DNA from: Alphaproteobacteria bacterium
Lineage (GTDB): Bacteria > Pseudomonadota > Alphaproteobacteria > UBA3830
NCBI GenBank assembly: GCA_024696365.1
Contig: JAILGW010000071.1
Coordinates: 1-42,811 of the forward strand
Length of the DNA: 42,811 bases
Reading direction: 5' to 3'
The position numbers were made by a program, and so were the translations under genes. The notes under the pieces are model-generated. The model was given only the letters and a program-made list of their open reading frames with translations, was not told the origin of the DNA and searched no databases. Positions 37,330 to 40,662 of the stretch are shown one piece after another. Position 1 is the stretch's first letter; every line of letters starts with the position of its first letter.

Positions 37330-39696
37330 TTGGCCACTATTTTGCACAATCAAGAAGGATTATTGGCGCAAGTAACTGCAAGTTTTGCTGGCAAAGATAC
37401 AGTATTATCATCTTTACGTGGAAAAGAAGGAATATCTGAATTATTTGAATTTCAAGCTGTATTTTCTTCTTCAAATAGTTCTGTTGATTTGGAAAAAGTC
37501 CTCGGCTCTGGAATAACGCTGACTATAAAGTCCGAAACACAGGAAATCTATCATGATTCAACGGATAATGTTGTTGATGAAACGCACGTCAGATATATAG
37601 ACGGAATTATTGCAGAATTTTCGCAAGGTCACACACAAACAAAAGGTGATGGCACAACAATTACGGAATATACGGCAATCATCAAACCAAGTTTGTGGTT
37701 GCTAACACTAGATAAAAATTATCTAATTTTCCAGAACAAAAGCGCAATTGATATCATCAAACAGGTCTTATCGGATAACGGGATAAAAGACCTTGAAGAC
37801 AAAACCAGCTCCTGTGGTAAAGTCGTCCGAGAATATTGCGTTCAATACGGAGAAAGTAGCTTCAATTTTATATCTAGATTGATGGAAGATGAAGGTATCT
37901 TTTATTATTTCAAACACGAGCAAGGAAAACATACCCTCGTTTTAGCGGACAGCTCAAATGGATACGAAAACGTTTCGATAGAATCGAAAGGAGGGCGCAT
38001 TCTGGGACGACAAGTAATACAGGACGGAAGCAGTTCCGGAAACGGTGCAAAAATCAGCTTCATTCAAAGTACCAATGCCGTTTGTCCTCTAAACAGGATA
38101 TTTAATACGAAAATTACAACAGCAGTAAATAGCGGGAGTTATTCCGCTGCAGATTATAATTACACAATTTCACAAACCAAATTATTCAGCAAATTGGACA
38201 CTCGGTGGAAAGGACAGAACGTTTACGATTACCCCGGTGGATTTGAAAAGTTAAAAGACGGAGATAATTTATCGAAACTTCGCGTACAACAGTTTGAGTT
38301 TAAGCACAAGTTGTTCAGCGCGAATTCCACTGCGGCTATTCTGGTACCGGGACATTTTTTTGAGGTAACAGGACACCCTGCGAAAAATTTTAACAAAAAA
38401 TATGTTGTGTATCATATAGAGCATTTTTTTGATTTCGATAATGTTAATGGCTTCGTTTATAGGAATAATATATCCGCCTTCGATTCCAACACTGAATTCC
38501 GCCCACCTCGCATAACACCAAAACCGAGGATTTACGGTTCACAAACAGCTGTTGTTACATGCCCGTCAGGAGAAGAAATTTTTCGTAATGAATATTGCGC
38601 TGTAAAAGTACATTTTTATTGGGATCAAGTCGGAGAAAGTGCCGACACAGACAAAAGTTCCTGCTGGATACGCGTTGCGCAATTACTCGCAGGAAGCGGT
38701 TGGGGAGCGATTTTTGTTCCTCGCGTTGGACAAGAAGTTGTAGTTACTTTTTTGAATGGGGACCCTGATAAACCTCTCATCACTGGATGTGTTTACAATG
38801 ATCAATATATGCCGGCATATTCTGATCAGGATGCAATGAAATCGTCTTTAAAAACCGTAACATTTAAAAATGATGATGAAGAAGGCTTCAATGAATTCAG
38901 ATTTTACGATGAAAAAGATAAAGAAGAAATTTATGTTCATGCGCAAAAGGACGTATATGTCGATATTATAAATTCACGCAAGACGGATATAGAAGAATCT
39001 GACGATACGTTAACGTTACTAAAAGGTAATCGTTCCATTTTTCTAAAATCAGATGAAGGGAACAATGAAGTTAAACATACCATGGAAATTACCAAAGGTG
39101 ATCAGATAGTTAATTTGAAAGAAGGCAATCTGAAATACACCATCACCAAAGGTAATAGCGAAATCACGTTATCAGAAGGTAATGAAACTATAAAGCTGGA
39201 AAAAGGCAATCGCACTATTACTCTTTCTAAAGGAGATTTGAAATACGATGTCACAGGTGATTGTACATTCAAGATTTCAGGGGATTTAACTATAAAAGCA
39301 GACGGTAATATCAAGATTGAAGCCGGAAAGCAAATATCTATGAAATCCGGAACCAACATGAAAATAGAATCAGGTACCGATTTATCAGCAAAATCAGGTA
39401 CAGGATTTAAAGCAGAAGCAGGCATGAACTTCGACATTAAAGCCACAATGAACCTAACAATGAACGCAAATATAAATATGGAAGCGAAAGCAAACGTCAA
39501 TATGCAACTGCAGTCGAATGTTAATATGTCGGTAAAATCAAATGTTATGTTTGAGGCCTCAGGAATGGCTATGACTAAATTAGGTGGACCAGGCGCAATG
39601 GATATATCTGGAGCGGCTATCTCCGTCTCTGGTATGGGCGCGACGCAAATTAAGTCACCGGTAATTCAACTTTCAGGAGCGATAAAACTTGGATAA
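37330..39696 (+). CDS. vgrG: VgrG spike protein (type VI secretion / contractile-injection tip; gp27-gp5 fusion)
   Basis: The N-terminus has EGISELFEFQAVFSS. The gp5 OB-fold hallmark is present: SCWIRVAQLLAGSGWGAIFVPRVGQEVVVTFLNGDPDKPLITGCVYN. The C-terminus is a beta-helix with roughly 8-residue periodicity (KGN.EITLSEGNETIKLEKGNRTITLSKGD...). Start is a TTG with AGAGGA 7 nt upstream. There is no extra C-terminal toxin domain. Confidence 0.9.
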   Translation: MATILHNQEGLLAQVTASFAGKDTVLSSLRGKEGISELFEFQAVFSSSNSSVDLEKVLGSGITLTIKSETQEIYHDSTDNVVDETHVRYIDGIIAEFSQGHTQTKGDGTTITEYTAIIKPSLWLLTLDKNYLIFQNKSAIDIIKQVLSDNGIKDLEDKTSSCGKVVREYCVQYGESSFNFISRLMEDEGIFYYFKHEQGKHTLVLADSSNGYENVSIESKGGRILGRQVIQDGSSSGNGAKISFIQSTNAVCPLNRIFNTKITTAVNSGSYSAADYNYTISQTKLFSKLDTRWKGQNVYDYPGGFEKLKDGDNLSKLRVQQFEFKHKLFSANSTAAILVPGHFFEVTGHPAKNFNKKYVVYHIEHFFDFDNVNGFVYRNNISAFDSNTEFRPPRITPKPRIYGSQTAVVTCPSGEEIFRNEYCAVKVHFYWDQVGESADTDKSSCWIRVAQLLAGSGWGAIFVPRVGQEVVVTFLNGDPDKPLITGCVYNDQYMPAYSDQDAMKSSLKTVTFKNDDEEGFNEFRFYDEKDKEEIYVHAQKDVYVDIINSRKTDIEESDDTLTLLKGNRSIFLKSDEGNNEVKHTMEITKGDQIVNLKEGNLKYTITKGNSEITLSEGNETIKLEKGNRTITLSKGDLKYDVTGDCTFKISGDLTIKADGNIKIEAGKQISMKSGTNMKIESGTDLSAKSGTGFKAEAGMNFDIKATMNLTMNANINMEAKANVNMQLQSNVNMSVKSNVMFEASGMAMTKLGGPGAMDISGAAISVSGMGATQIKSPVIQLSGAIKLG

Positions 39697-40279
39697 TAAC
39701 GACACACAAAATTCCAATGAATCAAAAATTGAAGAAATCCGTGATGCAAACGGCAAACTTCTGCGGACAATATCTATGTTGAACGGTATCCTTCATGGGC
39801 CGATGGTTGGATATGACGAAGATGGAAATGTTGCTCAGGAAATGATGTATGAGAATGGTGTTCTATCTGGAGATGCAAAATTCTATATGAATACCAAGTT
39901 ACTAATGACAACCTTTTTCAAAAATGGATTGCAGGAAGGAAATACTGAGTTTTTCGTAAACGGATTAAAGTCGGGCTCGGTCCCCATGAAAGAGGGCAAA
40001 TTCGATGGTATTTTTACTTCTTATGACGCAGCTGGAAATATCATCAGAGAAGCGAATTATGTTGCTGGCCTACAAGAAGGTGAATGCCGCACTTATTATC
40101 CAAATGGATGCTTGCTTGAAATGTCTACGTATAAAAACAACGTACTAGATGGAGAAGTCGTAAAATATTTTCAGGACGGAGCAGTAATGCAAACATCAAA
40201 TTTTCAAGAGGGAAAACCTGTTGGAACGGTAGATACGTACGACAACAACGGAAATTTAGTCTCCAGTGAGGAGGTCTGA
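39689..40279 (+). CDS. MORN-repeat-variant (YwqK-like) protein
   Basis: Seven repeats of about 23 aa with the pattern nG.l.G....Yy.nG.l... (for example NGILHGPMVGYDEDGNVAQEMMYE and AGLQEGECRTYYPNGCLLEMSTYK). The TTG start overlaps the vgrG end by 8 nt, and the stop overlaps the next ATG (TGATG). Confidence 0.75.
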   Translation: MDNNDTQNSNESKIEEIRDANGKLLRTISMLNGILHGPMVGYDEDGNVAQEMMYENGVLSGDAKFYMNTKLLMTTFFKNGLQEGNTEFFVNGLKSGSVPMKEGKFDGIFTSYDAAGNIIREANYVAGLQEGECRTYYPNGCLLEMSTYKNNVLDGEVVKYFQDGAVMQTSNFQEGKPVGTVDTYDNNGNLVSSEEV

Positions 40280-40662
40280 TGGGATTTGCCGTAAGTATTG
40301 GAGCACTAGTTCAATGTCCTTTCGGTGTTGCTCCAACTCCTTTAGTATTTTTACCGTTGTCATTAATAGGACCGAGTGGTCCTTTAGGTTCTTGCAATGA
40401 TTTTATTCCATTTTTAAACATAATGCCATTCGGGGTGTGTTCAAGCTTAGCGAATCCAATAACGGCGGCACAAACAGCGGCAGCTCTTGGTGTGCTCACT
40501 CCGGGTGCATGCATACCTGTCCCTACAGGAACATGGACACCCAATAAACCGACAGTCATAATGCCTACGGGGACTCTTTTAACCAGTGACTCTACATTGA
40601 ATTGCGCTTATGGGGGTGTTATAAAAATAATCAATCCAATGCAGTTTATTATAGCGACATAG
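40279..40662 (+). CDS. DUF4280 (PAAR-like) domain protein
   Basis: 127 aa: GALVQCPFGVAPTPL...IMPFGVCSSLANPITAAQTAAALGVLTPGACIPVPTGTWTP...LNCAYGGVIKI. This fits the conserved Cys/Gly/Pro pattern of DUF4280 as I recall it. Confidence 0.8.
   Translation: MGFAVSIGALVQCPFGVAPTPLVFLPLSLIGPSGPLGSCNDFIPFLNIMPFGVCSSLANPITAAQTAAALGVLTPGACIPVPTGTWTPNKPTVIMPTGTLLTSDSTLNCAYGGVIKIINPMQFIIAT

Follow-up and report, generated by a model that had tools for sequence, protein, structure and literature searches.

Introduction

The closest described counterpart of the locus reported here is found in the H3 type VI secretion system (T6SS) of Pseudomonas aeruginosa. The locus itself, a triad of genes encoding a VgrG spike protein, a MORN_2 repeat protein and a PAAR-like DUF4280 protein, lies at positions 37330 to 40662 of a 42.8 kb stretch of DNA from an alphaproteobacterium (contig JAILGW010000071.1). 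This whole stretch is referred to below as the window and it defines the scope of the analysis, the remainder of the genome lying outside it. In P. aeruginosa the gene vgrG3 (PA2373) is adjoined by tseF (PA2374), the 178 amino acid (aa) product of which contains MORN_2 motifs, binds VgrG3 and is released into the supernatant in an H3-T6SS-dependent manner (Lin et al., 2017, PMC5379069). TseF binds vesicles containing the Pseudomonas quinolone signal (PQS) and has an extracellular function in iron uptake (PMC5379069); PQS is restricted to P. aeruginosa and its relatives (PMC8776902). That tseF is syntenic with vgrG and a PAAR gene has been known since 2017 (PMC5379069, Supplementary Fig. 2). 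In the group-4A cluster of P. fluorescens F113 the gene downstream of vgrG3, which is linked to a small PAAR gene, has been called a TseF homologue (PMC7970981), and the T6SS-b cluster of Paraburkholderia phymatum (family i4a) is listed as containing vgrG, a YwqK family antitoxin and a PAAR-like protein (Bphy_5985, Bphy_5986 and Bphy_5987; PMC8356804). 'YwqK' is the COG and NCBI name for MORN_2 proteins, and homologues are labelled by JGI and NCBI as 'antitoxin component YwqK' or 'YwqK family antitoxin'.

A similar gene pair is known from intracellular Alphaproteobacteria. The genomes of Holosporales have their T6SS genes spread over four or more loci, one of which, a conserved [ywqK-vgrG] pair, is counted as a core T6SS locus (Midha et al., 2021, PMC8163844). 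A YwqK-family gene was likewise found beside VgrG in all four diplonemid endosymbionts described by George et al. (2020, bioRxiv 10.1101/719211), three of them Holosporaceae and one a member of the Rickettsiaceae. In both studies the YwqK gene beside vgrG was interpreted as encoding immunity (10.1101/719211; PMC8163844). The T6SS has been kept in almost all sequenced Holosporineae, Holospora being the exception (2025 review, PMC11909080).

We regard it as rather likely that the window triad is the puncturing tip of a T6SS in a Holosporaceae-like intracellular alphaproteobacterium, that the other tss genes of this bacterium lie elsewhere in its genome and that the MORN protein is a passenger belonging to the TseF family.

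The three genes of the triad

All three open reading frames are intact and lie at the coordinates first given for them. The first gene, vgrG (tssI; 37330..39696, + strand), encodes a T6SS spike protein of 788 aa with a gp27-like hub, a gp5 oligonucleotide/oligosaccharide-binding (OB) fold and a long C-terminal beta-helix. The protein matches the TIGR03361 model with E=1e-144 and 482.9 bits, above the cutoff of 186, and Pfam recognises Phage_GPD (1.7e-71, 241 bits), Phage_base_V (7.8e-15, 55 bits) and Gp5_trimer_C (9e-10, 39 bits) within it, while its C-terminus is weakly DUF2345-like. It carries VGQEVVVTFLNGDPDKPLITGCVYN, and Pfam/NCBIfam-type hidden Markov model (HMM) scans found no toxin domain or extension. 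These results bear out the preliminary description of this locus, made from the DNA alone, in which a full-length VgrG with the gp27/gp5 hallmark, a beta-helix tail and no toxin extension had been proposed. An origin from an extracellular contractile injection system or from a phage tail was considered and rejected, since the protein lies far above the T6SS-specific TIGR03361 cutoff and reaches no more than 18 bits with the model of phage P2 gpV.

The second gene (39689..40279, + strand) encodes a TseF-family MORN_2 repeat protein ('YwqK family' elsewhere) of 196 aa without a signal peptide. Its TTG start lies within the end of vgrG, the two genes sharing 8 nt as had been reported, with AGGAG placed 12 nt upstream, and the product matches PF07661 (MORN_2) with E=6e-23. 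An AlphaFold2 (AF2) model built on a 25-sequence alignment has a mean predicted local distance difference test score (pLDDT) of 95.3 and contains 16 strands arranged as 8 beta-hairpins. The earlier assignment to the MORN-variant class thus stands; the count that accompanied it was of seven repeats, against the 8 hairpins of the model. When the model was searched with Foldseek the top matches were MORN1 proteins of Toxoplasma, Trypanosoma and Plasmodium, junctophilins and axonemal MORN proteins, with template modelling (TM) scores of 0.55-0.63, and no enzyme-like feature was seen in the model or among these matches. A sequence search of the PDB with the same protein matched only the MORN repeats of SET7/9. 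Since no catalytic domain is present and the 8 beta-hairpins lie in a flat array, binding is the most likely mode of action of the protein, and the modelled array fits a binding scaffold with a lineage-specific ligand.

The third gene (40279..40662, + strand) encodes a PAAR-like protein of 127 aa that consists of the DUF4280 domain only. It matches PF14107 with E=1.5e-22 and 80.7 bits, against a cutoff of 26.3, over profile positions 3-109 of 109. Its ATG overlaps the stop of the MORN gene (TGATG), a junction that was present as first noted, and the start is preceded by a GAGGAGG Shine-Dalgarno site; the MORN gene is therefore translationally coupled to both of its neighbours. With TIGR03361, PF07661 and PF14107 all significant, the HMMs support the reading of the locus as a VgrG and PAAR-like spike module into which a third gene has been wedged. 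The PAAR-like DUF4280 family is defined by four conserved metal-binding cysteines (PMC5349215), and in the window protein these are C13, C54, C78 and C109, none of which varies among 13 homologues from alpha-, beta- and gammaproteobacteria. Structural information on this protein is slight: a PDB sequence search returned no solved DUF4280 relative and a single-sequence AF2 model reached a pLDDT of 36.9, too low for use. It is probable that the DUF4280 protein is the cone that caps the VgrG trimer. A comparable arrangement is that of IglG in Francisella, also an intracellular bacterium, in which a four-cysteine DUF4280 cone sits at the T6SS tip and has IglF as its partner (PMC5014421, PMC5349215). 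IglG differs from the window protein, which is domain-only, in having an N-terminal extension that binds IglF, and Francisella has no MORN protein. The match of the window protein to the IglG model was weak (29.9 bits, far under the 200-bit cutoff).

Relationship to TseF and to complete T6SS clusters

When the window MORN protein was compared by tblastn with plasmids and chromids, matches were found on replicons of Azospirillum, Paraburkholderia and Cupriavidus, in each case directly after a VgrG gene and with a DUF4280 gene adjoining, which runs in the same direction in the Burkholderiaceae whereas in Azospirillum it is encoded on the other strand. The genes of these high-GC loci were identified by plain open reading frame (ORF) lists and Pfam. 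On plasmid pBPHY01 of P. phymatum the Pfam matches give the order tssB-tssC-hcp-tssE-tssF-tssG-clpV-vgrG-MORN_2-DUF4280, and the same upstream tss genes are present in Paraburkholderia PGU19, Cupriavidus P-10, two Azospirillum chromids and one JGI contig. The P. phymatum T6SS-b genes share their order and orientation with the window triad, at identities of 32% for VgrG, 29-30% for the MORN protein and 50% for DUF4280, but differ in that the triad there directly follows the tssB-tssC-hcp-tssE-tssF-tssG-clpV genes. More generally, the window VgrG is 32-33% identical to the VgrGs that end the full T6SS clusters of Paraburkholderia, Cupriavidus and Azospirillum. The window MORN protein is collinear in alignment with the VgrG-linked MORN proteins of these three genera, and the free-living proteins differ from those of the endosymbionts by one extra repeat and a C-terminal tail.

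A direct comparison with TseF was made after a PAO1-type tseF had been rebuilt by means of the published primers. A metagenome collection was scanned with a 21-mer from the primer 'TseF up R', and in two of the four matches a 537-nt ORF (178 aa) was enclosed by the complete set of four primer sites in correct order. This tseF sits after a VgrG gene and faces a DUF4280 gene, and its product matches MORN_2 with E=3.6e-16. The window MORN protein is 25% identical to it by BLASTP (E=8e-14). In hhalign a 13-member alignment of VgrG-linked MORN proteins matched PAO1-type TseF with a probability of 99.5% and E=6.6e-23 over 144 columns, scores of a kind that repeats inflate. The window DUF4280 protein is 50% identical to the protein beside PAO1-type tseF and the C-terminal parts of the VgrGs are 37% identical. 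The two modules have in common a toxin-less VgrG, a small MORN_2 protein whose gene comes next after vgrG and, adjoining this, a DUF4280 protein without further domains. They differ in that TseF is shorter (178 as against 196 aa) and is without the first two hairpins or so, in that the P. aeruginosa DUF4280 gene is convergent where that of the window is co-directional, and in that the P. aeruginosa module is attached to the full H3 cluster whereas the window module stands alone beside rpoBC and ribosomal genes. When the 13 MORN proteins were used in a profile search for a named Pseudomonas TseF, all proteins retrieved were unnamed or called 'YwqK', and in the literature we found no paper pairing DUF4280 with MORN. 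TeoL of Cupriavidus necator was considered as a second characterised relative and was not used, as no mention of a MORN domain is made in its description (PMC8776902).

The homology of the whole module to that of TseF bears on the nature of the wedged gene. In the preliminary description this was thought to encode a cargo or adaptor outside the known families. Like the genes for the known VgrG-linked adaptors (DUF4123/Tap, DUF1795/Eag and DUF2169) it lies between vgrG and a PAAR-type gene. Pfam found no match of its product to any of these adaptors, MORN_2 being the only significant family, and unlike them the product is predicted to fold as a MORN hairpin array. That part of the proposal is nevertheless to be abandoned, as the hhalign score, the synteny and the 50% identity of the DUF4280 proteins place the MORN_2 protein in the TseF family, and a YwqK gene beside vgrG had already been reported in Holosporales.

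Conservation of the triad and the missing machine genes

An exact search for the window VgrG in public assemblies gave no match. A scan of a genome collection returned relatives of the window VgrG at 46-68% identity from metagenome-assembled genomes (MAGs) labelled Holosporaceae or Alphaproteobacteria, and distant matches at 31-35% from unrelated phyla. The isolate names of the former MAGs point to gut samples, such as goat caecum for locus L003. In a protein search more than 100 VgrG clusters were found at 37-80% identity, the named ones all being 'Holosporaceae bacterium' or 'Alphaproteobacteria bacterium', with Ca. Finniella inopinata at 38%; taken together, the VgrGs from Holosporaceae and Alphaproteobacteria MAGs are 46-80% identical to that of the window. 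Related loci were examined with flanks of up to 10 kb a side. VgrG, MORN and DUF4280 genes in the same order and orientation are present in L001, L003, L004, L005, L018, L021, L031, L032 and Ca. Finniella inopinata (L030), and also in L017, a scaffold whose DNA is ~97% identical to that of the window and whose MORN protein is 98% identical, which makes ten related loci in all. The best of these, L001, is from a Holosporaceae MAG and shares the gene order of the window. Its VgrG, MORN and DUF4280 proteins are 68%, 64% and 67% identical to those of the window, as compared with 92% for CarD and 95% for the HIT protein, indicating that the spike genes evolve faster than the housekeeping genes that surround them.

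The triad thus recurs as a syntenic unit, and its genes are under purifying selection: in comparisons between the window and its relatives, in which dS was saturated, dN/dS was 0.04-0.08 for vgrG, 0.08-0.16 for the MORN gene and 0.02-0.16 for the DUF4280 gene. Decay, which the preliminary description had entertained as an alternative, is not what these values (0.02-0.16) and the conservation of the unit indicate.

As had been stated, Hcp, sheath and baseplate genes are missing from the window. No further T6SS genes were found there by Pfam or by tblastn with the TssB, TssC, Hcp, TssE, TssF, TssG and ClpV proteins of a complete Paraburkholderia cluster, which matched nothing beyond VgrG, MORN and DUF4280; no dedicated TssA, TssJ, TssK, TssL or TssM queries were made. 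The absence of machine genes from 42.8 kb would be expected if the triad were an orphan remnant of a lost T6SS with no working contractile machine, as would the nonsense variant of one lineage (described below) and the damage seen in L017, and T6SS loss is known to have occurred in Holospora species (PMC11909080). In the L017 scaffold (aligned to window 38889-40805) 26 nt of the beta-helix repeats of vgrG are deleted (window 39307-39332), and DUF4280 is interrupted at window 40418 by a 168-nt AT-rich insert ending in NNNNNNNNNN, a run of N. Given the N-run and the foreign, AT-rich character of the insert, these defects are probably artefacts of scaffolding or assembly. Against a remnant stand also the three ORFs that are intact in at least ten diverged lineages at the dN/dS values given above, the four invariant DUF4280 cysteines and the fact that dispersed T6SS loci are the rule in Holosporales (PMC8163844), and we consider loss of the machine very improbable.

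The Holosporales provide an account of the layout. The window resembles the published [ywqK-vgrG] locus in the bacterial group to which its closest relatives belong and in that its vgrG adjoins a YwqK/MORN_2 gene apart from other tss loci, and Ca. Finniella inopinata has the same triad as the window. The published accounts differ in that the DUF4280 partner is unmentioned and the MORN gene is taken to encode immunity. Since a scattered T6SS is the published norm of the order, missing machine genes nearby are no sign of a stand-alone module or of a new loading mechanism. The notion of a compact and possibly new loading route therefore falls, the module being known already and Holosporales scattering their T6SS genes over at least four loci, and the term 'auxiliary' spike cassette is doubtful given that the [ywqK-vgrG] locus has been assigned to the core of the system. 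The relatives, and the purifying selection acting on the triad, lead us to infer that other T6SS loci exist elsewhere in the genome to which the window belongs.

The role of the MORN protein

If the module works as its relatives do, VgrG would trimerise to form the spike, which would be capped by the DUF4280 cone with its four-cysteine metal site, both steps being predicted from knowledge of these families. By analogy with TseF, the MORN sheet would bind VgrG, ride on it and leave the bacterium upon contraction of a sheath encoded elsewhere. Once outside, it may bind a membrane component or a protein that is presumably host-derived and is not PQS. As PQS is lineage-restricted, the functions of TseF that involve PQS, outer-membrane vesicles and iron cannot be assumed for the window protein and are unlikely to apply to it.

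A number of observations weigh against this interpretation. No tss core genes were found in the window or within flanks of up to 10 kb at the related loci. Not all relatives retain the complete module: in L002 (1044-3798), from a Holosporaceae MAG, a 54%-identical VgrG is followed by ~540 nt of non-coding DNA and then by a resistance-nodulation-division (RND) efflux operon, with no MORN or DUF4280 genes detected at the locus. Conversely, in L026-L028 a gene for a 51%-identical MORN_2 protein (10001-10660 in L026) stands alone between murC-murB and a Band_7 gene, with no VgrG or DUF4280 within up to 10 kb upstream and ~7 kb downstream, from which it follows that a TseF-like gene can be detached from the spike genes. 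In L018, L019 and L020 the MORN gene is interrupted at codon 168 (window Q163) by an in-frame TAG, with loss of the last 29 residues. This truncated ORF was assembled from three sequencing runs; in L018 (3510-4120) the codons downstream of the stop are still conserved, the MORN protein is ~82% identical to that of the window and vgrG and DUF4280 are intact. When the MORN proteins of endosymbionts and free-living bacteria are compared, the invariant residues are glycines and a few structural residues only, and the ligand therefore probably differs between the two groups. Finally, repeats inflate similarity, and MORN_2 proteins that are not linked to VgrG score as well as TseF does, so that synteny and the joint conservation of the DUF4280 and VgrG partners carry most of the weight in the assignment to TseF.

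Two other roles for the MORN protein have to be considered. It may be a cofactor or adaptor of the tip that is not secreted, and that assembles or stabilises the VgrG-DUF4280 complex or loads another effector without being cargo itself. Such a role would suit the position of the gene between or beside the vgrG and DUF4280 genes across alpha-, beta- and gammaproteobacteria, its translational coupling to both neighbours, the lack of a catalytic domain and a rate of change similar to those of VgrG and DUF4280. It would also suit the retention of a YwqK-family gene beside vgrG in the strongly reduced genomes of the diplonemid endosymbionts (10.1101/719211). However, TseF appears in the supernatant in an H3-T6SS-dependent manner and functions extracellularly (PMC5379069), the module contains no other candidate effector gene, and one lineage tolerates a premature stop while VgrG-only and MORN-only loci exist. 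On this evidence a purely structural or loading role seems unlikely, though not negligibly so.

The second possibility, that the MORN protein is a YwqK-type immunity protein (antitoxin) against a T6SS toxin, is how the gene was read by George et al. and Midha et al. (10.1101/719211; PMC8163844), and the antitoxin names given to its homologues by JGI and NCBI are in keeping with it. The protein is also predicted to be cytoplasmic, having no signal peptide. A YwqK-type immunity protein would be expected to be encoded beside its cognate toxin, be it an LXG or deaminase toxin or a toxin domain carried by VgrG or PAAR, but no toxin domain is present in VgrG, in the domain-only DUF4280 protein or in the neighbouring ORFs, the flanks being formed by the 95%-conserved HIT gene and an FkbM methyltransferase gene, and the triad is toxin-less in every locus examined. 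Furthermore TseF, the one characterised member of the family, is a secreted effector that binds VgrG (PMC5379069). We therefore think an immunity function improbable and continue to favour a TseF-like passenger on the tip.

Surroundings of the triad

The preliminary description named an FkbM operon and rplS as the neighbours of the triad. The FkbM gene does adjoin vgrG. On the other side rplS is separated from DUF4280 by a HIT gene (40687-41139) and by a 250-aa ORF (41174-41926) between HIT and rplS, for which no Pfam/NCBIfam match was found and no tblastn match in any related locus, L001 included. From vgrG onwards the first terminator-like site on the + strand lies past rplS at 42432-42455. 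Between the divergent FkbM and vgrG genes is an intergenic region (37202..37329) with the sole promoter-like match upstream of vgrG (37273-37302), which comes from a consensus scan only, with a match count not above the shuffled expectation.

The FkbM-family methyltransferase gene (36290..37201, - strand; TIGR01444 5e-12) is found divergently upstream of vgrG in seven loci (the window, L001, L004, L018, L021, L031 and L032). It is absent beside the Ca. Finniella triad and had no tblastn homologue in the free-living loci searched (L011-L016 and L029). In the window, L001, L004, L031 and L032 the FkbM gene is followed by one for a large protein of 596-927 aa without a Pfam match (window pair 34329-37201, - strand). 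The large protein of the window has a signal-peptide-like N-terminus, MKKCIFVITSLISCMFVANA, and is only 35% identical to its L001 counterpart. The pair could reflect shared ancestry or could be a linked host-interaction gene pair; a literature search for a link of FkbM with VgrG found nothing relevant.

Among the other window ORFs scanned with Pfam are those of a ribosomal-protein super-operon together with rpoA/B/C, secY, adk, tuf, fusA, carD, a membrane H+-pyrophosphatase (H+-PPase) gene and a PD-(D/E)XK transposase-like fragment, while for five ORFs Pfam gave no match. The transposase-like fragment is at the start of the window (6-545) and the H+-PPase gene is at 2071-4182 (703 aa, H_PPase 876 bits). 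The rpoB gene (29165-33358, - strand) has no rplJ-rplL ahead of it, and the first gene upstream is a carD-like one on the other strand (33826-34332).

Implications

The TseF effector family, the triad that ends i4a-type clusters and the isolation of the Holosporales locus from other tss genes are all known already, so a claim of novelty for the locus fails, and neither a new kind of injection system nor a new principle of loading is revealed. The modest addition made here is that the Holosporales gene hitherto read as 'YwqK immunity' can be linked to TseF and that the DUF4280 cap is recognised as the constant third partner of the pair.

A wider idea may be put forward tentatively. The TseF-like MORN protein might be, instead of an iron effector of particular species, an ancient and near-obligatory partner of the VgrG-DUF4280 tip in this T6SS lineage that binds target membranes and that has been redirected to host membranes or organelles in protist endosymbionts, in which case the PQS and iron role in Pseudomonas would be derived and the 'YwqK immunity' label wrong. 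Were this true, the FkbM methyltransferase and the fast-evolving signal-peptide protein beside the triad might join the same host-interaction island. For the family as a whole, the TseF module is seen to be of old origin and to occur widely among alpha-, beta- and gammaproteobacteria, and for protist symbionts that are unculturable its MORN protein provides a candidate injected protein.

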